Shown piece by piece: positions 1,514-60,260 of a stretch of 64,000 bases of DNA; the stretch's first letter is position 1; every line of letters starts with the position of its first letter. Location: the NCBI GenBank assembly GCA_963713955.1, contig OY970216.1:136075-200074 (forward strand), read 5' to 3'. The notes under the pieces are model-generated. The model searched no databases. It saw nothing but the letters and a program-made list of their open reading frames with translations, and was not told the DNA's origin. The position numbers and the translations under genes were made by a program. The stretch is from an uncultured bacterium (lineage in GTDB: Bacteria; Patescibacteriota; Minisyncoccia; UBA6257; GWB1-50-10).

Positions 1514-2359
1514 TTACTGGTTTGTGCAGACATTGAGCTCGCCGGTAAATGCACAATTCGCCGATGTACAACAGTAATTACTTGAACACTCATCGTTGGT
1601 GGTGCAGCTCTCACCGTTTTGCTTTTTCTCGGCACACCGGTACTGCTTGTTACAGTAGCCACTTACACAACCTTCGTTATTGGAGCACATCTCTCCATTT
1701 CCGAACTTGGTGAAACATACCCAGTTACCGCTCCCGCTCCTTGATTCGTCGCAAAATTGGTTTGGCAGGCACCCAGTTGATCTACAATCGAGGGGCGGTG
1801 GCTGAGATATTACTGCACAGTGTTCCGCTACACATGTCTGTCCGGATGGGCAGGGATTTGCATCAGAACACTGATCACCAGTAAGATCCACGCAGTAATC
1901 ACTTAAGCATGTTTGACCACTGGGACAGTCGGATGGTTTCACACAGCTTGTGAAAACGTTGTTTGGGTTGACGCCACTTTGGCTGCTTGATATGGCGTCG
2001 AAGAATGAGGTTATGATAAGTATAATTCCTCCCGAGATCACGGCTATGACGAGGGCGATAAGAGAGTTTTTCAGTATCTTCTTCGCCTTTTTGATCTTCT
2101 CGTCGTTTCCAGCCGCCGTCATAAAGTTGAAGGCAGATATTAGGATGAAAAGCAAAACAAGCCCTATTATTATCCCATAGAACCAATTTCTGCCCGTATT
2201 GATCGTGTCTATAACTGCGTTTATCCCCCCTTTCGAGATGCTCGTTTGAGGAGGTGCGGACATGACCGGAGACTGTATCGGCGGAACCTGCGCAAAAGCC
2301 GATGCCGCCCATCCGAGCGGCATCAACGATACGGCAATTATTTTTAATATCTTAGGCAT
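1514..2359 (-). CDS. VirB2/TrbC-like pilin paralog with Cys-rich C-terminal extension
   Basis: Signal-like N-terminus, helix-AAGNDEKIKKAKK-helix core, then approximately 150 aa with repeated CPSGQTC-type Cys spacing. Confidence 0.5.
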   Translation of the reverse strand: MPKILKIIAVSLMPLGWAASAFAQVPPIQSPVMSAPPQTSISKGGINAVIDTINTGRNWFYGIIIGLVLLFILISAFNFMTAAGNDEKIKKAKKILKNSLIALVIAVISGGIILIITSFFDAISSSQSGVNPNNVFTSCVKPSDCPSGQTCLSDYCVDLTGDQCSDANPCPSGQTCVAEHCAVISQPPPLDCRSTGCLPNQFCDESRSGSGNWVCFTKFGNGEMCSNNEGCVSGYCNKQYRCAEKKQNGESCTTNDECSSNYCCTSANCAFTGELNVCTNQ

Positions 2360-2380
2360 AGATAATCCTTATGCCGATTG

Positions 2381-2749
2381 TTATTGAGTCCCTCGATTTA
2401 TCAAGAAGCCTTGTATTACAGCCACTATACCCTTCGAGAGTACTGCGAGTGCGATGGCTATGATGGCGTATGTCAGGGTTTTCTTGGCTTTCTTGACTCT
2501 CTCGTCATTGCCAGCCGCGGTGGCATAGAAAAATGCCGCGACTATTATCATGCCGATGCCGAGAACGAGAAGTATGCCGAAGAGCCAGTTGACCACCGTG
2601 TTCAGCGTATCTCCAATTTGGGTGTAGCTTGTGTATGTGTTATTTAACCCACTTGGCAGTGTTCCTGGCGTTACAATCTGCGCAAACGCCACAAAGGGCA
2701 GTATGCTCGCTCCGTAGATTATCGCCTTTACGATATTTGTCTTTTTCAT
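2381..2749 (-). CDS. VirB2/TrbC-like pilin paralog
   Basis: 122 aa; signal peptide; helix-AAGNDERVKKAKK-helix core identical in layout to neighbours. Confidence 0.5.
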   Translation of the reverse strand: MKKTNIVKAIIYGASILPFVAFAQIVTPGTLPSGLNNTYTSYTQIGDTLNTVVNWLFGILLVLGIGMIIVAAFFYATAAGNDERVKKAKKTLTYAIIAIALAVLSKGIVAVIQGFLINRGTQ

Positions 2750-2785
2750 GGTTTTATCTTTATCCCCACGACCTTTGAAAATAAG

Positions 2786-3223
2786 TTAACCGTTCAGTAG
2801 TATTTTGACAATACTTATAATACCGCTCCCTATCAAAATTATACCATATCCGATGGCGGTGTAAAGAATGGTTTTCTTGCCTTTCTCGAACCCCTCCGGC
2901 TTGCCGCCGGACGTGAGAATTTGAATGCCCCCCACGATGATCATAAGGGCGGCGACGGCTCCGCCGACCGTCACGAGCCACTTCATGATGTTGCTGATGA
3001 TTCCCTCAATATCGTTCGTCGTGCCAAGGGGATTGACGAGGGAGATTGAGGTCTGGGTTGGTTGAGAGGGAGGATTTGGTGTTATTTGTTGGTTAGGAGG
3101 GTTAGGCGTTGTGTTGTCTGCTGCTAGAGTTATATGCATGGGCATAAGTTGCGCCGAGATCACGGTCGCACTCGATATTAGAATTAGTGCAATTGCCAGA
3201 GTTTCGGATTTCATTGTTTTCAT
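2786..3223 (-). CDS. VirB2/TrbC-like pilin paralog
   Basis: 145 aa; signal peptide, Pro/Asn-rich spacer, helix-SGGKPEGFEKGKK-helix core. Confidence 0.45.
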   Translation of the reverse strand: MKTMKSETLAIALILISSATVISAQLMPMHITLAADNTTPNPPNQQITPNPPSQPTQTSISLVNPLGTTNDIEGIISNIMKWLVTVGGAVAALMIIVGGIQILTSGGKPEGFEKGKKTILYTAIGYGIILIGSGIISIVKILLNG

Positions 3224-3238
3224 TATAGCAGAAACCGA

Positions 3239-4378
3239 TTATTTGCATGACGGCGACTCAACTATGAGACACGTGCCGTCAGAACTCACACCATTTATGT
3301 TGTTACAACTCGTCCCGTCGGGGCTACAAGCGTATTTGCCGTCAGATGCGATTTTTGCAAATGTGTAGTCGCTGGGGAAACCGATCTGCGTCTTGTACTG
3401 CTGATTCAGCATTGAGACAGCATTTTGGTTACACCAGTCCTTATAAAGGAATGGCATGGTGCCGACTGGGTAGGTTTGCGCGTTTTCGGGCGCACCTTGT
3501 ATGTTTTGCGGCGTTGTTCCGCAGGCAAACCTACCGTCATTGGCTATCGCTGCGTATAGGGAGGCACCGTTTGCACATTGCGTCTTATGGATTAGTAGAC
3601 ATGAATCGTCAGAGCTCACGCTGCTGTCGTTTATATCGTTGCAGCTTTTACCGCTCACGCTGCAAGAATATTGGCCGCTTGCGGAAAGTTTGGCAAATGT
3701 CCAGTCAGTCGTCCAAGACAAAGGATATTTGTTTAACTGGTCCGCTGCATTTACTCCGCAATAATTTGACGCCAAGAATGGCATTGTGCCTAATGGATAG
3801 ATTATAGCATGCGCCGGTACATTTATTACCCCTTGTTGTGTAGTGCTACAAATGAAAATGCCGTTGTTTGCTATCGCCGCATAGAGAGCGACAGGCGGAT
3901 TATTATTTATGTTGTTGGTGATGTTTATTGTCGGCGGCTGGGGATTATGCTGGCAGTTAATTTGGTTCCAGGCGAAGCTGGAGTTGCCCGTTAGGACGTG
4001 TATCAGCGTTCCTACGACAATCCACGAGACGAGAGCGATTGCAACGCCGGTCACGGCCTTCACGAGTATGCTTTTCCCTTTCTTGAAATTGTTTTCGCTG
4101 CCGCCGGAGATGATCATCGTGATTCCCCCGACGACGATCATAACCCCCCCGATCGTGAACGAAAAGTCGAGAAGGATCCCAATGATGTTGTTCGCGACGA
4201 TCAGGGCATCGCAAAAATCGCAGGAGGCAACGGGTCCACCCTTCGTGCTCCCTGCGGCGCACTGAGTTCCCTTCCAGATGCCGGTGCCCGCAGCGTACGA
4301 AAAGCTGAAACTTACAAGGAAAATAAGAAACCCCACAAGCAAAATCTCGGCCGATCTTTTTTCTAAGGATTTTTTCAT
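3239..4378 (-). CDS. VirB2/TrbC-like pilin paralog fused to tandemly duplicated Cys-containing C-terminal domain
   Basis: N-terminal helix-GGSENNFKKGKS-helix core; C-terminal two approximately 100-aa repeats (ALYAAIAN(N/D)G..C..T..GTMPFL...TFAK(L/I)AS(D/S)G(K/Q)Y(A/S)CS). Confidence 0.5.
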   Translation of the reverse strand: MKKSLEKRSAEILLVGFLIFLVSFSFSYAAGTGIWKGTQCAAGSTKGGPVASCDFCDALIVANNIIGILLDFSFTIGGVMIVVGGITMIISGGSENNFKKGKSILVKAVTGVAIALVSWIVVGTLIHVLTGNSSFAWNQINCQHNPQPPTINITNNINNNPPVALYAAIANNGIFICSTTQQGVINVPAHAIIYPLGTMPFLASNYCGVNAADQLNKYPLSWTTDWTFAKLSASGQYSCSVSGKSCNDINDSSVSSDDSCLLIHKTQCANGASLYAAIANDGRFACGTTPQNIQGAPENAQTYPVGTMPFLYKDWCNQNAVSMLNQQYKTQIGFPSDYTFAKIASDGKYACSPDGTSCNNINGVSSDGTCLIVESPSCK

Positions 4379-5691
4379 CAGAATCCCCCTCCGCTATTCA
4401 TTATACCAGTTATCTGGTCTTGGGCCTGCTTGAGAGCCGAATACGAATTGCCCTGGCCGGTTACCAAGGAGTCGATCATCTGGGAGAAGACGGGGTTTAT
4501 CGAACTCCTCTCGGGGCCGTACCAGGATCGGGCGTAAAGCGCCTGCTTCGCGAAAACCGACAGATTCGGGTCGTTGAGGTAATTGTTGATTAAGGAAAGA
4601 AGCGCCGGCGGATTGCCTGACGCTTTGACGTACAAATCGGCGGCCCCGGGGTTCGTGGTCATAAATTGCACGAAGTTCCAGGCAAGTCCCGCAACTCTGC
4701 TCTGCTTGGACACTGTGAAGCCGAGGTATTGCGGGGACGAAACGAAAATAGTCGAGGAAGCCGGCTGGGGCACCGGAGCGATTCCGTAATTGAGGAACGA
4801 GTTTTTTGCCTTAAGGTTGTTCTCCGCCGACTCGTAATCGAAAATCATGGCGACTTTGTTCTCCGCGAAGGCGTCGATCGAGTCGGACATGTTGTAGTTC
4901 CAGGTGTAATAAGCGCTTCCGGGATTGGAGAATTGAGTGTAAAAGCTCACGGCGGCAAGGCCGCTTGAAGAATCGAACGTCGCCGCGTTCTTGGTTTTGT
5001 CAGTTATTTGCGTGCCGTTCTGGAGCATGAGGAGCGACAAGATGCCCGTCGCGTTGTCTATGTTCGCGTCCGAGGTTCCCACGGCAGCCGCCGCCTGAGT
5101 GATAGTTCCGGTCGACGAGATCTCGGTCAATTTCGGGATCATGGCGTCGAAACCCTGCCAAGTCGACGGCGGATACACGATGCCGGCCTTGGCAAAGAGA
5201 TCTTTGTTATAGAAGAGAGCTAAGGTATCGATTGAGAGCGGGAGTCCGTAGACAGAGCTGCCGGAGACGAAATCCTGGCTGACGACCTGCGGAAAATCTT
5301 GCTGTAAATTCAGGAGTGAGAACTGCGTCGGCGAGAGCGGGATGATCTTATTGAGGTAATTCGGAAGCTCGGTCGAGGGGATCATGAAAATATCCGGCGA
5401 CTGCCCCGCGGCCATGGCTTCCAAAAGCGCATTGGTGTAGGCGTTGTAATCAGTGAACTGCCTGAGGTTTATTTTCACGTTCGGAAACGTGGCGTTGTAG
5501 GCGGCGACGATTGACGTGTAATAAGAAAGATCGTCTCCGTAGAGCCACGCGGTGAGCGTTCCCTGCACGCTCGCAGGGTTGGTGGTGGTGTTTTTGGATC
5601 CGGGCAATATCCCGGCGAAGATGAGTCCGAAGATCAGTATGACGAGAATCGCTCCACCGAAAATGATAAGTTGGGTTTTGGTTAAAGACAT
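4378..5691 (-). CDS. ABC transporter substrate-binding protein (family 1, sugar-type), membrane-anchored
   Basis: N-terminal TM anchor then SBP_bac_1-like sequence ([13 protein letters not shown]); start overlaps gyrA stop by 10 nt. Confidence 0.65.
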
Positions 5692-8126
5692 ACGATGCCT
5701 ACTAACTTATCGCCTTTATCTAAGTTCATGATTTTTACTCCCTGCGTCGCCCGGCCGAGGATCCGCACGTCTTTAAGGGGCAACTTAATCGCTTGGCCCC
5801 GGGAAGAAAAAGCGATGATCTCTTCCGTTTCGGGGCCGACCACGTGGGCGCCTATCACAGGGCCGGTTTTCTCGGTGATTTTGGCCGTTTTGATGCCAGA
5901 ACCGCCCCTCCTTTGTATTTTATACTCTTTGAGGTTTGTTTGCTTCCCGAAGCCGTTCGCAGTCACGGCCAAGAGCTTCGATTCGGATATCGATTTGGCC
6001 GATACGACGTCGGCGCCGGAGACCGCATCTCTCTTTTTGAGTTTTATGGCCTTCACTCCTCCGGCAGTCCGACCCATGCTCCTGATGTCTTTTTCTTTGA
6101 ATCGGATGGCCTGTCCGAGGCTCGTCGCGAGGATGATTTCATCACCGCCCCCGGAAAGCTTCACCCACAAGAGCGCGTCGTCCCCGGCGAGCTTCACGGC
6201 TATGATCCCGTTCCTCCTCACGTTTTGGAAATCCTTGAGTGTCGTTTTCTTTATTACGCCGCCCTTGGTTATCATAACCAAAAATCCTTCCGTCGTGTCC
6301 TTTGGATAGGAAATCACGGTCGAGACTTTTTCGTTTACGGGCACCTCGAGGAAATTGTAGATCGACTTCCCTTTGGAGGTTCTCGTCGCTTCCGGTATTT
6401 CATAGGCCTTGGTTTGGAACGCCCGCCCTTTGCTCGTGAAAAACAAAACGTTGTCATGGGTATTTGCGTAAATGATCTGGGAGATTTTATCTTCCTCTTT
6501 CAATTCCGCGCCGATCAAACCCTTGCCGCCGCGTTTTTGCGAACGGAACGTACCCGGCGGCATCCGCTTGATGTAACCGTCCTCGGAAACCGTTATGATC
6601 GAGTCGCCTTCGGGTATAAGATCCTCTTCGTTGAACTCTTTGAGACCGCCGGCTACTATTTTCGTCTTGCGTTCATCGCCGAACGTCTTTTTAAGTTCGG
6701 CAAGGTCGCTCTCTATGATGCCGAGGATTCTCTTTGGATCCTTCAAGATGGCCTTGAGTTCGGCGATGAGTTTTTTCTTTTCGGCGAGTTCGTCTTCCAG
6801 TTTTTGCCGTTCGAGCGCCGCCAAAGACTGCAGTTTCATTTCCAATATGGCTTCCGCCTGTACGGCCGTCAGTTTGAAGTTCTTCATCAAGTTTTCCTTG
6901 GCCGTTTCCTTGTCTTTGGATTTCTTGATGGTGGCGATTATTTTGTCTATGACATCCAGGGCTTTCACGAGGCCCTCCAGGATGTGGGCCCGCTCCTCGG
7001 CTTTCTTGAGATCGAATTCTGTTCTTCTCGTTATGACAAGTTTCCGGTGTTCGAGATAGTACGAAAGGATATCCTTCAAGGAAAGGACTTGCGGCTGGAT
7101 GCCGTCGACGAGGGCCAGCGTGTTGTAGTAAAAATTTTTCTGGAGTTCGGTGTACTCGAAAAGCTGGTTCAGGATCTTCTGGGGATTGGAATCGTTCTTA
7201 AGCTCGACCACGATCCGCAATCCTTCCCGATCCGATTCGTCGCGGACGTCCCGGATACCTTCTATTTTTTTCTCTTGGACCAGTTCCGCAATCTTCGTCA
7301 CGAGATCTGATTTGTTGACCTGATAGGGGATCTCTGTGACGACAATCTGAAAGCTGCCGCTTTTCCTCTCCTCTATCTCAGCCTTCGCCCGCATCGTGAT
7401 AGATCCTTTTCCAGTCGAGTAGGCTTCTTCAAGCGATTTTTTGCCGTAGACGATGCCGCCGGTCGGGAAGTCTGGCCCCTGGATGAACTGCATGAGATCC
7501 TTCACGGTCGCGTCCGGGTGTTTGGTAAGATGAACGATCGCATCGGCCACTTCGTCGAGGTTGTGTGGAGGAATGGACGTCGCCATGCCGACGGCGATCC
7601 CGACCGTGCCGTTCAGGAGCAGGTTGGGGAGTTTTGCCGGCAGGAATCGCGGTTCCTCGCGGGTCGAGTCGTAGTTGGGTATCCAGTTCACGGTCTCCTT
7701 CTCGATGTCCATAAGCATTTCTTCCGCGATTCTTGAGATCCTACTTTCGGTATATCTCATCGCCGCAGGGCTGTCGCCGTCAACCGAGCCCCAGTTGCCT
7801 TGGCCGTCGATTAAGGGGTAACGCAATGAAAAATCCTGGGCCATGCGGGCCAAAGCATCATAGACCGCCATGTCGCCGTGCGGGTGGTATTTCCCCAAGA
7901 CTTCCCCGACAACATTAGCGGATTTTTTGAATTTGGCGTTATGAGTAAGCCCTGTGTCCCACATTGCCCAGAGGATTCTCCGTTGGACTGGTTTTAGGCC
8001 GTCCCGGACGTCCGGAAGCGCACGGGACACGATGACTGACATCGCGTAATCCAAGTAGCTCTCCGAAAGTTCCTCGGTTATCTCTTTTTCTTCTATTTTG
8101 CCTTGTTCCTTTTTCTCTTCGCTCAT
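5682..8126 (-). CDS. gyrA: DNA gyrase subunit A
   Basis: [25 protein letters not shown]-terminal beta-pinwheel repeats; 814 aa. Confidence 0.95.
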
Positions 8127-9353: not shown

Positions 9354-10445
9354 ATGACGATAAACATAAAAAACGGGGGCGGTTCGATAGGCCAAATTTT
9401 GAAAACCAACCACTCTTTTTTGCCGACCCTCCGGGCGGGCGATCTGGTCGAAGGCAAGGTTCTCGAGAAGGGTTCTGCGAAGCTCTTCGTTGATCTCGGC
9501 AAGTACGGGACAGGCGTCGTCTATCGGGGTGAACTCCAGAATGCGAGGGAGTTCGTAAAAAATCTCGGTGTGGGCGACCCCGTCCACGGCAAGGTGATCG
9601 ACATAGACAATGAAGAAGGATTCGTGGAGTTGTCACTCTCGGAGGCCGACAAACAAAAAGCCTGGACCGAGGTGCAGGAACTCAAAGACAAAGACGAGAT
9701 ACTGACCGTCAAAATTTCAGGGTTCAACAAGGGTGGCCTCATAGTGGATCTGAAGAGCCTCTCCGCCTTTTTGCCGGTTTCCCAGCTTTCCAATGAGCAC
9801 TATCCCAAAGTCAGCGCGGAGGATCGGTCAAAAATCTTACAATCGCTCCAGCTTCTCGTGGGCTCCGAACTCAAAGTGAGAATCATCGACGTGAATCCCC
9901 GAACGACGAAGCTCATCATCTCCGAACGGGCGGCCGAGGAAATGAGCGCGCGGGACCTCGCCAAGAACTATTCCGTGGGGCAAGTCATCGAGGGTATTGT
10001 CTCCGGCGTGGCTGACTTTGGCGTATTCGTCCGGTTCACGGACAACCCGGCCGTGGAAGGATTCATCCATGTGTCGGAAATTGACTGGAAGATGATAGAA
10101 AATCCGAAGGAAGTTCTGAAAGTCGACGAAGTGGTGAAAGCGAAGATCGTGGACATAAAAGACGGGAGGATTTCCCTTTCTCTCAAGGCACTTAAGGAGA
10201 ATCCCTGGACCAAGGTTTTGGAGTATTTCAAGGACGGCGATGAAGTCAAGGGAACAGTCTATCTCTTTAACCCGTTCGGAGCGGTCATAAGCCTGGAGCA
10301 CGACTTCCAGGGCGTGATACGGGTCACCGAGTTCGGGGGAGTCCCTGAGATGAAAAAACAGATTTCGCAGGGGGAGGAATATTCGTTTATAATAGAATCG
10401 GTGAAGCCCGAAGAGCGAAGAATCAACCTCAAATTAAAGAAATAA
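9354..10445 (+). CDS. rpsA: 30S ribosomal protein S1 (short 4xS1-domain form)
   Basis: Four S1 repeats (GD.V.GKV, G.V.G.V); 363 aa. Confidence 0.8.
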
Positions 10446-22627: not shown

Positions 22628-22727
22628 ATCAGGAATTTATATATAACTACATTAAAGCCTAAAATTACCTTTTCTTCAATTGGAAAGTTCAAATTTTCCA
22701 CTGTTTCTGTCGCCTCCCGCTCTCATT

Positions 22728-22780
22728 ATGGCTTCCCGCTCTCCATATGGAGAGCGGGAAGCCATAGATTCTGGGGATAA
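22728..22780. promoter_or_regulatory. 38-bp perfect palindrome ATGGCTTCCCGCTCTCCATATGGAGAGCGGGAAGCCAT followed by DnaA-box-like TGGGGATAA
   Basis: Exact palindrome 22728-22765; box 22772-22780; 100 bp upstream of ftsK; core repeated at 56767-56811. Confidence 0.4.
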
Positions 22781-22910
22781 CTTTTCCCCGGACAAAAGAA
22801 AGGTGCTGTACCTTCAGTACAGTTCTGGGAGTTCTCGTATCAAGTTTCCTGGGGCCGGGGATTTAAGGTCTAAGAAAATTTACCAGAAAAACAGGAAAAA
22901 ATCGATAAAA

Positions 22911-23075
22911 TGGGAAAACCTGATAAAACTGAAAAACCCAGTAAATTGAAAAACCCGATAATGCGATGAAACCTACACTTTTCAAAAAATAGGTCAAAAG
23001 TGTAAAACATCGATTTTGTTTAACAGGCTGATAATGCGATGAAACCTACACTTTCGATTTTTTGATGAAAAAAGT
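22911..23075. repeat. iteron-like direct repeats: 3x GAAAA(A)CC.(G)ATAA(A) at approximately 16-18 bp spacing, and 2x perfect 25-bp GATAATGCGATGAAACCTACACTTT each followed by an ACACTTT/AAAGTGT hairpin
   Basis: 25-mer at 22957-22981 and 23030-23054. Confidence 0.5.
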
Positions 23076-23131
23076 GTTTGAACCTAAACATTTTGTTTGG
23101 CAATGTTTTCAGGGATTGATATAATAATTCT

Positions 23132-23497
23132 ATGACTTTTCGGCAGGAAACTGGTAAAAGGGGAGAAAATTTCGCTGCTAACTACTTGAAAAGGAGAGGA
23201 TATAGGATTATTGAGAGGAATAAGAAGGAAAAATGGGGAGAACTGGACATTATCGCCGTTGCGCCGGACAGAACGCTGGTTTTTGTAGAGGTAAAGACTG
23301 TAGGTGGATGGAACGATATTGAAGCAGAAGAACAAATGACGGGATCGAAGATCAAGAAGTTCACAAGAACAGCTCAGATATACGCAGGAAGCCATAAAAA
23401 GCTGGTGGATGACAAAAAGGGGTTTCGGCTCGATGTCCTGGCGCTTACGGAGAAAGAAGATGGAGGATTCGATGTGAGGCATTATGAGAATATATAA
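23132..23497 (+). CDS. yraN: YraN-family (UPF0102) endonuclease
   Basis: GE.AA.YL...G..I..RN......GE.DIIA......VFVEVK signature. Confidence 0.75.
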   Translation: MTFRQETGKRGENFAANYLKRRGYRIIERNKKEKWGELDIIAVAPDRTLVFVEVKTVGGWNDIEAEEQMTGSKIKKFTRTAQIYAGSHKKLVDDKKGFRLDVLALTEKEDGGFDVRHYENI

Positions 23498-28464: not shown

Positions 28465-28545
28465 GTCTCGGCGAACCAAAAAGGTGTGCGCTAGGGCCGC
28501 GCTTGCCAAGTCTTACCCACCTTTTTGTTTCACCGATCCTCGCTT
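28465..28545. repeat. hairpin repeat element, family A (core GTGTGCGCTAGGGCCGCGCTTGCCAAGTCTTACCCAC)
   Basis: Core 28484-28520 identical to reverse complement of 52741-52777 and near-identical to 60198-60234; flanked by AAAAGGTG/CACCTTTTT-type inverted arms. Confidence 0.5.
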
Positions 28546-47953: not shown

Positions 47954-48625
47954 ATGCAAGCGGTAATTTTGGCGGCAGGCCTTGGGACGAGGATGAAGGA
48001 ACTCACGGTGGATACCCCAAAGCCGCTCTTGAAGATCGGCGAAAAAACGCTTCTCGAGTACAAGCTCCAGAACCTTCCCGATGAGATAGACGAAGTGGTG
48101 CTTGTCATCGGCTATCTGGGAGATCAGATAAAGTCCGCGTTCAACGGGAAGTTCCGGGGCCGCAAGATAACGTACGTCGAGCAAAAGGAATTGAAGGGGA
48201 CCGGCCACGCACTCTCGCTTTGCAAGCCGTTTCTCGCGGGCAGATTTCTCGTCTTGATGGGGGACGACTTGTACGCCAAGGAGGATCTCGAAAAATTAGT
48301 GAGCTATCCTTTGTCGGTTTTGGGCTGCGAGCTTAAAGAGGATATCTCGGGAGTAAAGCGGGCGGAAATAAAAACAGACGCCTCGGGCAGGGTGACGGAA
48401 ATCGACGAAAATTCTCCTGCAAGGAAGGGTATGCTCGAAAATGCGGCGGCCTACGTTTTGGACGAAAGTTATTTTGAATATCCCCTGAAGCCGGCTGATT
48501 CGAATTCGAAAGAGTTCGGCCTGCCGCAGACCATGGCGCAAATGGTGAGGGATGGGAAAGACATAAAGATTGTGAGGGCAACGTGGTGGAAGAAAGTCAC
48601 CTGCCCGGAAGACTTGAGGTTTTAG
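47954..48625 (+). CDS. sugar-phosphate nucleotidyltransferase
   Basis: AVILAAGLGTRM....PKPLL signature of NTP_transferase family. Confidence 0.7.
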   Translation: MQAVILAAGLGTRMKELTVDTPKPLLKIGEKTLLEYKLQNLPDEIDEVVLVIGYLGDQIKSAFNGKFRGRKITYVEQKELKGTGHALSLCKPFLAGRFLVLMGDDLYAKEDLEKLVSYPLSVLGCELKEDISGVKRAEIKTDASGRVTEIDENSPARKGMLENAAAYVLDESYFEYPLKPADSNSKEFGLPQTMAQMVRDGKDIKIVRATWWKKVTCPEDLRF

Positions 48626-48628
48626 CTC

Positions 48629-48697
48629 GCCACGTACCTCCGCTCAGGCAGTCTCCGGGGCGACGCCCAAGTCTTAGCCTTCGCGGAGGTACGTGGC
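48629..48697. repeat. hairpin repeat element, family B (core GGCAGTCTCCGGGGCGACGCCCAAGTCTTAGCCTTCGCG)
   Basis: 15-bp arms GCCACGTACCTCCGC/GCGGAGGTACGTGGC around core 48647-48685; second copy 54119-54158. Confidence 0.5.
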
Positions 48698-52718: not shown

Positions 52719-52800
52719 GGAGGAGTGGTGATACGAAAAAGTGGGTAAGACTTGGCAAGCGCGGCCCTAGCGCACACTTTTTCGTATCACCACTCCTCTC
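52719..52800. repeat. hairpin repeat element, family A (inverted orientation) between convergent genes
   Basis: Perfect 22-bp arms GGAGGAGTGGTGATACGAAAAA / TTTTTCGTATCACCACTCCTC around core 52741-52777. Confidence 0.55.
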
Positions 52801-54035: not shown

Positions 54036-54088
54036 TTCTTTCTCTTTATTAATTATAGAACTTTTCACAATAAAAAATCTGTGGATAA
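54036..54088 (-). promoter_or_regulatory. candidate promoter (TATAAT at 54052-54057, minus strand) overlapped upstream by perfect DnaA-box-like TTATCCACA (54080-54088)
   Basis: Read on minus strand: TTATCCACAGATTTTTTATTGTGAAAAGTTCTATAAT. Confidence 0.3.
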
Positions 54089-54099
54089 CTTATTTTGTC

Positions 54100-54172
54100 G
54101 CGAGACGCCTCCTCGCTCGGGCAGTCTCCGGGGCGACGCCCAAGTCTTAGCCTTCGCGAGAAGGCATCTCAC
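54100..54172. repeat. hairpin repeat element, family B, second copy
   Basis: Core 54119-54158 identical to 48647-48685 except 2 nt; arms GAGACGCCTCCTCGC / GCGAGAAGGCATCTC. Confidence 0.5.
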
Positions 54173-54348: not shown

Positions 54349-54387
54349 ATTTATCTCTCTTCTTTCTTCGCCGGGGGGATTGGAATG

Positions 54388-54459
54388 TGCCCTCGCGAAG
54401 AATCGAACTTCGATCCGCGCGTTAGGGGTGCGCTGTTCTGTCCGTTGAACTACGAGGGC
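54388..54459 (-). tRNA. tRNA-Arg, anticodon CCU, with C33 and an A31-C39 mismatch
   Basis: Acceptor GCCCTCG/CGAGGGC, D stem GTTC/GAAC, anticodon loop CCCCTAA, T arm CGAAG-TTCGATT-CTTCG. Confidence 0.5.
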
Positions 54460-56696: not shown

Positions 56697-56766
56697 TGTA
56701 ACATCCCCCATAGATCACTTTAATTATAGCACTCCCTGTCAGAAGTTATCCCCTAATTTATCGTCC

Positions 56767-56811
56767 CCCGCTCTCCATATGGAGAGCGGGAAGCCATAAA
56801 TCTGTGGATAA
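56767..56811. promoter_or_regulatory. second copy of palindrome (CCCGCTCTCCATATGGAGAGCGGG) plus AAGCCATAAATCTG-TGTGGATAA DnaA-box-like module
   Basis: Shares 45 bp with 22734-22780; sits in divergent promoter region between radC and pilin-like gene. Confidence 0.4.
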
Positions 56812-56869
56812 CCAACACTCTCACCTTCCCAAAACAAAAAGCCAGACACCTTCCTGCTATAATGAAAAG

Positions 56870-57190
56870 ATGAACTTCAGTAGTCGGAACAGCTTCACCC
56901 TCATCGAGCTCCTGGTCGTGATCGCCATCCTTGCCGTCTTAGCGACAGCCGTCGTCTTGGTCTTGAATCCTGCCCAGCTCCTGGCTCAAGGAAGAGATTC
57001 AACCCGTCTCTCAGATCTCGCAGCTTTACAGAGCGCCCTCTCCCTCTTCCAGGCTGATCAATACAGTCAATCCCTGGGAATTGCCTCTACGACCTATATC
57101 TCGATCCCTGATTCCTCCTCTACCTGTGGGGACTTGGGGCTTCCTGCCCTTCCTTCAGGATACTCCTATGCCTGCGTTCCATCCTTGTGA
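56870..57190 (+). CDS. type IV pilin-like protein (prepilin N-terminal cleavage/methylation domain), C-terminus possibly truncated by IS insertion
   Basis: MNFSSRNS-FTLIELLVVIAILAVLATAVVL prepilin signature; stop codon TGA lies inside the IS3 left inverted repeat. Confidence 0.6.
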   Translation: MNFSSRNSFTLIELLVVIAILAVLATAVVLVLNPAQLLAQGRDSTRLSDLAALQSALSLFQADQYSQSLGIASTTYISIPDSSSTCGDLGLPALPSGYSYACVPSL

Positions 57191-57247
57191 TGGATAGGTT
57201 TCTTTAGACAGTCACTCGACAAGTTTTCTCGTCGTTTTTTCATTCTC

Positions 57248-58030
57248 TCACACTGCTATCTTCTCTGCAAACACCGAAGGCGGCATCCTGAGAGCGGAGT
57301 GGATTCTTGTATGGTTGTACTCCCAAAGCGTTCGGTAGATCTCCGCCACAAGTTCCCCTAAGGATCTGAACCGATTAGGATCGCCAAGATCCATTTTGAA
57401 TTTTCCGTAGAAAGATTCTTGGTATCCGTTCTCCCACGGCGATCCGGGGCGTGAGCGGGAGATGGTGATGCCGTAGCGCTCAAGCATAGCGATGAACGCC
57501 TTCGCTTCGTATTCCCTCCCGTTGTCAGAATGGAAGATCACGGGTCGCGGGCAATGGAAGAGCGCGTTCGCCAGAGTTTGGATGGTGAGCGTCGATCCCT
57601 TCCGGGTCGCCACATGAACGCCCATCAGTTGCCTCGTAAACAGGTTAAGGATCGTTGATACGTACAGCTTCTTCCCGTGAAAGACAAGCTCCGTGAAATC
57701 CGTCGCCCAGACATGGTTCGCATATGATGGCATAATGCCGAGGAGGAGGTTCGGGAAGTGCCGTTCCGCCTTGGATTTCCTGTATTTTCTCCCATGCCTG
57801 CGGTAGGGCTTGATGCCGTAAATCCGCATGACCCGTTGCGCTCTCGGTCTGCCGATGCCGAGCGCAATCGCCAGTCGGCGTGAGCCGTATGAGGGATGCT
57901 CGTGAAGCACCTCCTCCGTCCGGACCTTTAATGCCCAATCCTTCTTGTCCTGCGTTGCGACGTAATAGAGCGATGAGCGCGAGACACCCATGGCGCGAGC
58001 CAGGGCGGATACGTTCCTTTCCCTGCTCAA
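57248..58030 (-). CDS. IS3-family transposase OrfB (DDE integrase core, rve)
   Basis: WATDFT (D), HSDNGREY (D), PWENGYQESF (E) catalytic triad spacing. Confidence 0.8.
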   Translation of the reverse strand: MSRERNVSALARAMGVSRSSLYYVATQDKKDWALKVRTEEVLHEHPSYGSRRLAIALGIGRPRAQRVMRIYGIKPYRRHGRKYRKSKAERHFPNLLLGIMPSYANHVWATDFTELVFHGKKLYVSTILNLFTRQLMGVHVATRKGSTLTIQTLANALFHCPRPVIFHSDNGREYEAKAFIAMLERYGITISRSRPGSPWENGYQESFYGKFKMDLGDPNRFRSLGELVAEIYRTLWEYNHTRIHSALRMPPSVFAEKIAV

Positions 58031-58290
58031 TTCTTTTTTTGGGTCTGGGACAGCTTGATCGTGAGTTCACCGATCACTTCGAAGAGTTCCTGATTCTGTT
58101 TCTTTAGGCGATTGATTTCTCCCCAGGAGGGAGCGCTCGTGGCACCGGCGCCGAGCCATCCATACACGGTTGTCTCGTGGACGCCTGCATCTTTTGCCGC
58201 TTCTGCGACGGAGACGCCTTCTTCCTTCACGCGGCGGACAATCTCCGCTTTTACCTCTTTCGCTACCCGATATCCTTTTTTGTTAGCCAT
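58027..58290 (-). CDS. IS3-family transposase OrfA (HTH)
   Basis: 87 aa, HTH (VSVAEAAKDAGVHETTVYGW), leucine-zipper-like tail; overlaps OrfB at AAAAAAA. Confidence 0.75.
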   Translation of the reverse strand: MANKKGYRVAKEVKAEIVRRVKEEGVSVAEAAKDAGVHETTVYGWLGAGATSAPSWGEINRLKKQNQELFEVIGELTIKLSQTQKKN

Positions 58291-58510
58291 GACACAATGG
58301 TAATTTGTTCCGACCTTTGTGTCTAAATTTTCCTATCCGGAACACAATATTAATGTTTACTTTCGCAGTGCGCAAAAGTAGAAGTAATACAACCTCAGGT
58401 TAATTAGCATAATTTAGTCCGAAAATCATCTAAGACGACCACCAGTTGGGGGAAATCAAACTCAAATTGAATTCGGCATACCTTTGGGGTATGCTGGACT
58501 TCACACGTCC

Positions 58511-60171: not shown

Positions 60172-60260
60172 CTCGAGGGACTCGGCAAGCCGAAAAAGTG
60201 TGCGCTCCGGGCCGCTAGGCCAAGTCTTACCCACTTTTTCGCCTCACCGAGCCCTCTCAC
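60172..60260. repeat. hairpin repeat element, family A, third copy
   Basis: Core 60198-60234 GTGTGCGCTCCGGGCCGCTAGGCCAAGTCTTACCCAC with arms CGAAAAAGTG / CACTTTTTCG. Confidence 0.5.

Follow-up and report, generated by a model that had tools for sequence, protein, structure and literature searches.

A low-copy, dyad-symmetric intergenic element with DnaA-box-like ends upstream of the ftsK-recA operon and radC in a candidate-phyla-radiation bacterium

What is a long perfect palindrome doing upstream of the ftsK-recA operon in the genome of a candidate-phyla-radiation (CPR) bacterium, and why does its core occur a second time upstream of radC? Bacteria of this radiation cannot be cultivated on their own, and recognisable regulators are scarce in them. 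To our knowledge, almost nothing is known about their cis-regulatory DNA. A sequence-only reading of the 64-kb stretch analysed here (the window) had suggested a possible operator role for the palindrome in a DNA-damage regulon, assisted by an adjacent DnaA-box-like motif, or else a mobile palindromic repeat carrying a promoter.

The first copy (site 1) had been read as an exact palindrome of 38 bp at 22728-22765. Its symmetry is confirmed, and its actual extent is 40 bp (22727-22766), with 20-nt arms and no spacer. As a single strand it folds at -26.6 kcal/mol (z = -7.65). The 24-bp core, CCCGCTCTCCATATGGAGAGCGGG, has exactly two copies in the window, at 22735-22758 and, in site 2, at 56767-56790; it was matched in 0 of 100 dinucleotide-preserving shuffles, with up to three mismatches permitted. 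The near-identical module that the sequence-only reading placed in front of radC (56767-56813) is likewise real: in addition to the exact core, the two sites have 44 nt in common at 89% identity, and the likeness extends through ...AAGCCATA(G/A)AT(T)CTG(G/T)GGATAAC. The last nine bases of this shared stretch, read on the other strand, give a DnaA-box-like TTATCC(C/A)CA, and each core copy in the window adjoins such a TG(G/T)GGATAAC box.

Site 2 presents the module in its complete form. Here the perfect dyad covers 24 bp inside 68 bp, a box is found at each end, and the ends, GTTATCCCC and GTGGATAAC, form terminal inverted repeats. This module folds at -17.5 kcal/mol (z = -5.7) and scores 73 bits with model R1. 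At site 1 there is just one box, and a degenerate half-site (22711-22725) occupies the expected place of the ftsK-side box. In the general layout, each half of the module consists, from the end inwards, of a TTATCC(C/A)C box, about 7 nt of AT-rich spacer and a 15-nt GC-rich arm; the two halves mirror each other across a short AT-rich centre, and the symmetric whole is about 65-70 bp long. Both sites are intergenic, and site 1 borders a conserved non-coding block of about 300 bp. No direct repeat or target-site duplication flanks site 1 or site 2.

The gene context had been read correctly. Site 1 lies 100 bp 5' of the ftsK ATG, in front of a minus-strand operon consisting of ftsK, an HTH_25 (RodZ-like) gene and recA. 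Site 2 lies 56 bp 5' of radC, which is also on the minus strand. Both sites sit between divergent units. On the other side of site 1 is a plus-strand YraN-like (UPF0102) gene with its own near-consensus promoter (23097-23125), and on the other side of site 2 is a type IV pilin-like gene. The edge of the site 1 dyad is 47 bp upstream of the ftsK -35 element. At site 2, the extended -10 elements of radC and of the pilin-like gene are both perfect and point away from the module (Table 1); lying between two such outward-facing elements, the site 2 module should not be transcribed. The dyad centres are about 102 bp (ftsK), 62 bp (radC) and 91 bp (pilin-like gene) upstream of the inferred starts, without overlapping any -35 or -10 element. 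No promoter was found inside the module. A terminator scan called neither window site, and neither has a T-tract. In the Rfam search, tRNAs were the sole hits in the window; site 1 gave sub-threshold miRNA-hairpin artefacts and nothing at gathering score. The module is outside the predicted transcribed regions, some 60-100 bp upstream of the flanking starts.

Several further features were noted around these genes. The -10 hexamers of the pilin-like gene (56855-56872) and of the YraN-like gene (23117-23134) end only 6 nt before the ATG, which suggests leaderless mRNAs for both. An IS3-like element begins one base past the end of the pilin-like ORF (57190), and the gene has probably been truncated by it. 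This element has 19-nt imperfect inverted repeats (57192-57210 and 58320-58338). Elsewhere in the window, a minus-strand cluster of four genes with T4SS_pilin (PF18895) domains is present at 1514-4378, with a box-like TGGGGATAAA (2759-2768) in a 36-nt spacer between two of them.

Table 1. Coordinates of the features discussed (positions in the window unless a relative is named)
Feature	Coordinates	Strand	Remarks
ftsK core promoter, TTGAAG-17-TTTAAT	22651..22679	-	kept in all relatives (by-eye alignment of L126, L128, L136, L137, L138)
Degenerate extra half-site, TGAGAGCGGGAGGCG	22711..22725	-	partial tandem arm copy
Site 1 central dyad	22727..22766	.	TATGGCTTCCCGCTCTCCAT / ATGGAGAGCGGGAAGCCATA
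Site 1 box, TGGGGATAAC (reverse complement TTATCCCCA)	22772..22781	+	6 nt from dyad
Conserved non-coding block	22782..23090	-	GTGTAGGTTTCATCGCATTATC twice (22957-22978, 23030-23051), hairpin remnant, phased T-tracts, decayed parS-like repeat
Conserved block in relatives	L126 9226-9412; L128 9301-9540; L136 2240-2460; L137 8646-8905; L138 9527-9845		
Lone box, TGTGGATAAC, no dyad	54080..54089	+	kept at orthologous position in L134 (3917), upstream of HtrA-like protease gene
radC extended -10, TGCTATAAT	56723..56731	-	kept in L130 and L132; outside module
Site 2 radC-side box, AGGGGATAAC, inverted	56745..56754	-	CGATAAATT precedes it, as also seen in L130 and L132
Site 2 complete module	56745..56812	.	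68-bp imperfect palindrome, box'-spacer-arm-ATAT-arm'-spacer-box
Site 2 core	56767..56790	.	same sequence as site 1 core
Site 2 pilin-side box, TGTGGATAAC	56803..56812	+	9/9 vs E. coli DnaA-box consensus
Pilin-like gene extended -10, TGCTATAAT	56855..56863	+	6 nt before ATG at 56870; outside module
IS3-family element	57192-58338	-	HTH_Tnp_1 orfA 58027-58290, rve orfB 57248-58030

The DnaA-box-like motif proved to be the best-supported piece of the sequence-only reading. The DnaA-box consensus of E. coli is TTATCCACA. Compared with it, TGGGGATAA of site 1 (22772-22780) matches at 8 of 9 positions, TGTGGATAA, found both at 56803-56811 and at 54080, at all nine, and GGGGATAA, within AGGGGATAAC at 56745, at seven. 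In about 212 kb of lineage DNA, G(G/T)GGATAA occurs 21 times, and 10 of these occurrences are intergenic by a crude ORF call; intergenic DNA makes up 9.7% of the total, and the excess of boxes there has a binomial P of about 1e-5. After three spurious ORF calls are removed, the intergenic count becomes 13 of 21. The box is therefore strongly biased to intergenic DNA, and it is the most conserved part of the module. This bias, together with orthologous conservation, makes the box the oldest and most clearly functional component. The end boxes are candidate DnaA sites, so named only from their 8-9/9 matches to the E. coli consensus. Like the boxes at DnaA-regulated promoters, they are intergenic, occur singly or as inverted pairs near promoters and are orthologously conserved; unlike the DnaA boxes of an origin, they are not clustered. 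However, we know of no described DnaA-regulated promoter with a tight pairing of a box and a long perfect dyad. The box was also considered as a -35 element, but its spacing to the -10 element varies (13, 33, 37 and 42 nt) and so it is no fixed promoter hexamer.

Comparison with related genomes provides further clues. Orthologous loci were reached through FtsK and RadC homologues and come from Jorgensenbacteria-like relatives; the names attached to the FtsK homologues put the source bacterium, a member of the Patescibacteria, close to Candidatus Jorgensenbacteria / Minisyncoccia. The ftsK / HTH_25 / recA operon and its core promoter are kept in all six genomes available on this side, while the module is found in the yraN/ftsK spacer of three of them (the window, L126 and L136). 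The DNA upstream of ftsK is variable: in most relatives it includes one or two small genes, and a gene-free spacer as in the window is seen only in L138. In the module of L136 (2460-2520), a palindrome that is perfect over 43 bp, GGCCCCCCGCTCTCCTTCAAA-t-TTTGAAGGAGAGCGGGGGGCC, precedes TTAGATTCTGGGGATAAG. That of L126 (9411-9479) reads GTTATCCCCA...GGCCCCCCG...GGAGAGCGGGGGGCC...TGGGGATAAG, in which the outermost parts, GTTATCCCCA and TGGGGATAAG, are terminal inverted repeats and one inner arm is decayed. The GGAGAGCGGGGGGCC of the other L126 arm is kept, suggesting constraint on sequence as well as on pairing. In L138 only ...GAAGAGCCAATATTTGGGGGATAAC, a box with an arm remnant, is left. At the corresponding place, L128 and L137 have hairpins unrelated to the module.

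In an alignment of four modules from three genomes (A3; both window modules, L136 and L126), GGAGAGCGGG, GCC and TCTG-GGATAA show no variation or almost none; in three stem pairs, both partners are altered. For example, TT/AA in the window dyad is CC/GG in L136, and both dyads are perfect, at 40 and 43 bp, respectively. Moreover, the centres of these two dyads differ by a symmetric insertion (ATAT in the window, TTCAAAtTTTGAA in L136). Judged from this alignment, the four modules clearly belong to one family.

On the radC side, the module is present in three of five genomes, namely the window, L130 and L132. RadC identity to the window protein is 84% for L130/L131 and 80% for L132/L133. In L130 and L132 the layout is a dyad, GATAA-TT, (T/A)G(G/T)GGATAAC, 33-37 nt and then the conserved -10 element. 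Comparison of these orthologous promoters did not favour a common operator: the dyad of L130 (module at 9897-9931) and L132, TATCGAGGCC-g-GGCCTCGATA, is unrelated to the window core. The module is absent at radC of L134/L135 and L139; a likeness of the L134 and L139 radC promoters to the module arm was considered and rejected as too weak in alignment A4. L130 has a second copy of its dyad, AATATTATCGAGGCC-g-GGCCTCGATAATATT, at 5908-5938. An MFS transporter gene has its stop codon 10 nt before this copy, and a gene for a small membrane protein starts 85 nt downstream of it; the copy has only a partial box and a T-rich stretch after it. The dyad type is therefore common to loci within a genome (site 1 and site 2 in the window; the radC and 5908-5938 copies in L130), while at the same locus it differs among genomes; the scaffold of spacer and box is common to genomes.

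The tie of the module to both loci, as first read, is thus no accident of a single genome, since related modules are found at yraN/ftsK in L126 and L136 and at radC in L130 and L132. The module has long been part of the yraN/ftsK-recA spacer and the radC upstream region, is inherited vertically and occurs in few copies. Its architecture recurs at orthologous loci where other intergenic DNA, promoter hexamers apart, has diverged beyond recognition, which argues for purifying selection. From the sequence comparisons, the palindrome itself is the fast-changing centre of this older symmetric intergenic element of about 68 bp.

These data bear directly on the proposal that the palindrome serves a DNA-damage regulon, made up of the ftsK-recA operon and radC, as its LexA-type operator. 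In common with SOS operators, the module has dyad symmetry upstream of recA-operon and DNA-repair genes in one genome, and related modules stand at both loci in some relatives. However, LexA operators measure about 14-16 bp and lie over the core promoter, whereas the 40-bp dyad lies upstream of it. The ftsK core promoter, TTGAAG-17-T(A/T)AAAT, is kept in relatives without the module (L128 and L137) or with a decayed arm only (L138), and in L126 and L136 one or two other genes separate the module from the ftsK-recA promoter. The dyad sequence varies among close relatives, and the extra L130 copy stands beside a transporter gene, outside DNA metabolism, a kind of context that the sequence-only reading had itself taken to speak against its proposal. 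A lexA-like repressor gene was sought, as that reading had advised, and no LexA/S24-type protein is present among the 30 window proteins scanned with Pfam. Finally, a paper from the LexA field counts Patescibacteria among the lineages whose LexA is reported to recognise a direct-repeat motif, not the canonical palindrome (PMC7739468). The position upstream of core promoters, the absence or displacement in relatives, the variable sequence and the lack of LexA/S24 among the scanned proteins argue that this is not a LexA-type operator; this model is largely refuted and now exceedingly improbable.

The best reading is that of an untranscribed, low-copy protein-binding module, to which we assign a probability of about 0.4. 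As double-stranded DNA, the module would offer a platform to which proteins bind, and from positions of about -60 to -100 it would influence the promoters on its flanks. Its conserved end boxes would bind a conserved protein, for which DnaA is the obvious candidate. The central dyad may bind a dimeric partner that is lineage-specific or structure-specific, and/or may extrude as a cruciform. Dyad symmetry and identity between loci could be kept by concerted evolution, through co-evolution with the binding protein and/or gene conversion. A dyad type that is the same within a genome and different among genomes at the same locus is the pattern expected if the dyad co-evolves with one recognising protein. 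There are, on the other hand, several observations against a protein-binding module. First, perfect symmetry over 40-43 bp far exceeds the need of a typical dimeric regulator. Second, the centre is 1, 4 or 13 nt long in different modules, which a rigid dimer would not tolerate. Third, the module is dispensable, being lost (L128, L137, L134 and L139) or decayed (L138 and one L126 arm) while the flanking genes are unchanged. Fourth, the second L130 copy is terminator-like in position and its box is partial. Finally, two copies in the 64-kb window, with no further ones detected by model R1 in the 212 kb of lineage DNA, define no regulon.

Some of the same observations can be read differently. The module may be a selfish or neutral palindromic repeat of the REP or MITE type, with or without GTTATCCCC/GGGGATAAC ends, that spreads among intergenic sites through transposition or gene conversion; every genome would then have its own master sequence and the proximity to promoters would be incidental. 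We regard this as the chief rival, possible if rather unlikely. It would explain why the dyad is genome-specific and shared by unrelated loci within a genome, including the L130 copy past the transporter gene, and it agrees with the inverted termini of 9-10 bp at site 2 and in L126, with the loss or decay of modules in several relatives and with the excessive length of perfect symmetry. Site 2 also appears to be chimeric: the base of its radC-side arm (GACGATAAATTAGGGGATAAC) is L130/L132-like, and its core and pilin-side arm are site 1-like. Occupation of the same two loci in several genomes, however, agrees better with vertical inheritance than with recent mobility. L138, with its box and arm remnant, offers no clean empty site, and no module match was found in plasmid, phage and viral collections. 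The earlier suggestion of a mobile palindromic repeat with a promoter is therefore only partly borne out, the element being low in copy number and having neither a target-site duplication nor an internal promoter.

REP sequences are extragenic palindromes of 20-50 nt with a guide tetranucleotide (usually GTAG) directly 5'; they are present in tens to hundreds of copies per genome, often as REP/iREP pairs (BIMEs), and in some families the palindrome is perfect and co-evolves with the transposase (PMC8266576). The present dyads resemble the REP/BIME and RAYT (TnpA_REP) system in being extragenic and species-specific, with copies similar within a genome and different in related genomes (PMC8266576). 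In contrast to REPs, they have no GTAG-type tetranucleotide on either strand (the flanks are ...CTCATTA/TGG... and ...GAATCTA/TGG... at site 1 and ...TTTATCG/TCC... at site 2), they number two in 64 kb rather than hundreds per genome, and they form no REP/iREP tandem. They also stand beside a conserved TTATCC(A/C)C box upstream of promoters, whereas REPs are mostly in 3' regions. No HUH/Y1 transposase or tnpA_REP is present among the 30 window proteins scanned with Pfam. A canonical REP is argued against by the missing GTAG, by the very low copy number in the 212 kb of lineage DNA and by the absence of tnpA_REP among these proteins. MITEs such as the Correia elements of Neisseria are similarly short, non-coding and intergenic, have terminal inverted repeats and can adjoin promoters; unlike them, the module is smaller (about 68 bp), very low in copy number and without target-site duplication or clean presence/absence polymorphism. 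Its termini are unrelated to the inverted repeats of the IS3-like element, the only IS in the window, and a MITE derived from that element was rejected on this ground. The module is of a known kind, the dyad-symmetric intergenic element, of which the present one is a new variant.

Among 185,579 species-representative genomes (a set that excludes the source genome), the exact 20-bp core had four isolated occurrences, all in unrelated phyla, which is background. A metagenome query with a degenerate centre, CCGCTCTCC-N4-GGAGAGCGG, was too permissive: it returned at least 120 generic GC-rich terminator hairpins, and among the matches listed the real module was seen only in L005, from the same organism. 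Three other candidates were set aside. For an uptake sequence, the half-site 10-mer GAGAGCGGGA is the most frequent in the window, yet it has six copies only, four of them in the two dyads. The other two (5234 and 5333, plus strand) are 99 nt apart inside a solute-binding-protein gene (4378-5691, minus strand) and are probably a coincidence or an internal protein repeat. A competence regulon (radC, pilin, recA) is contradicted by the gene divergent from radC in L130 and L132, which is not a pilin gene, and by the extra L130 copy beside a transporter gene. An oriT-like nick site was considered for a resemblance to TATCCTG, but it would be oriented wrongly with respect to the inverted repeat, and a relaxase is lacking.

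The hairpin-forming capacity of the dyads raises another possibility, namely a hairpin or cruciform whose role is purely structural and involves no sequence-specific partner, acting as a bidirectional terminator, as an insulator or as a sink for negative supercoils between divergent promoters. Folding gives long hairpins for all modules, the z-scores being strongly negative; symmetry is kept by changes in both arms while the length of the centre is free; and both the window and L136 have AT-rich centres. The lineage genomes also carry long hairpins and loop-less perfect palindromes 3' of genes. However, the window copies lie between divergent units, where there is nothing to terminate, and outside predicted transcripts. 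The hallmark of an intrinsic terminator, a hairpin with a T-tract 3' of a gene, is seen only at the L130 5908-5938 copy and at neither site 1 nor site 2. In addition, a structural role leaves unexplained the sharing of arms within a genome, the kept arm of L126 and the constant partnership with the box. Such a purely structural role is improbable.

Two sets of long palindromic structures were observed apart from the module. Further long perfect palindromes, mostly loop-less (26-39 bp) and 3' of genes, are found in L126 (3125-3158 and 7516-7541) and L130 (3422-3455 and 17540-17578), and long perfect dyads seem to be a general trait of intergenic DNA in this lineage. The window also has a family of long hairpins of about 70-85 nt (28467-28539, 48620-48685, 52720-52791 (inverted), 54093-54158 and 60181-60253), mostly directly 3' of genes. 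They have a common apical motif, ...GCCAAGTCTTACCC... or ...CCCAAGTCTTAGCC..., and outer stems that vary yet pair, with folds of -36 to -52 kcal/mol. No Rfam family matched them at threshold; they look like a family of structured 3' elements or terminators.

The conserved non-coding block beside site 1 deserves separate consideration. About 170 nt of it are kept in six genomes, where FtsK identity is only about 80%, and the module, where it is present on the ftsK side, directly follows this stretch. The block contains an almost invariant 22-nt box, GTGTAGGTTTCATCGCATTATC, in one or two copies, with a promoter-like TTGAAA-16-CATTAT, as well as a hairpin, CAGCCTGTwAAACA-N7-TGTTTTACAGGCTG, and T-tracts phased at about 10 nt. 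Its inverted repeat, AAAATGTTTCAC/GTGAAACATTTT, contains the canonical parS consensus. This repeat is perfect in L128 (TGTTTCACGTGAAACA) and has two mismatches in L136 and L137 and more than three in the window. In some genomes, a LAGLIDADG or Trypsin_2 gene is inserted beside the block. The parS-like repeat, the phased T-tracts, several TTATC motifs and the DnaA-box-like module at which the block ends could indicate part of a replication-origin or chromosome-partition region. This is very improbable: GC skew keeps its positive sign across 22.7 kb without a switch, neither dnaA nor dnaN is in the window, the parS-like repeat of the window is decayed beyond three mismatches, and site 2 has no such block. 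An oriC was rejected on the unswitched GC skew and the absence of dnaA and dnaN from the window.

The protein-binding module remains the preferred reading, and more elaborate versions can be imagined. Theoretically, it may be a composite CPR-specific control element in which inverted DnaA boxes surround a cruciform-prone dyad bound by a lineage- or structure-specific protein. It would couple the status of replication or DNA topology to the ftsK-recA operon, radC and possibly the YraN-like nuclease gene, as a LexA-independent substitute for an SOS-type response in a minimal genome, and hairpin-templated correction would maintain its symmetry. We consider this composite element quite improbable. 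The analysis does define a concrete CPR element, consisting of a conserved DnaA-box-like motif and a dyad that evolves symmetrically, genome by genome. If the box is a DnaA site, it would provide a first handle on DnaA-dependent control of transcription in CPR bacteria. If the dyad is a self-copying palindrome, it would be a rare case of a very small genome with repeat dynamics. In both cases, an SOS-box annotation, tempting but unsupported, is corrected.

A last observation concerns the tRNA genes of the window. One member of a tRNA cluster (54387-54459, minus strand) has the anticodon CUA and is labelled 'tRNA-Pyl' by ARAGORN; it would read the amber codon. TAG ends 13 of the 52 predicted window genes, so this codon is not globally reassigned. 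The CUA tRNA may act as a suppressor, or it may have been miscalled.
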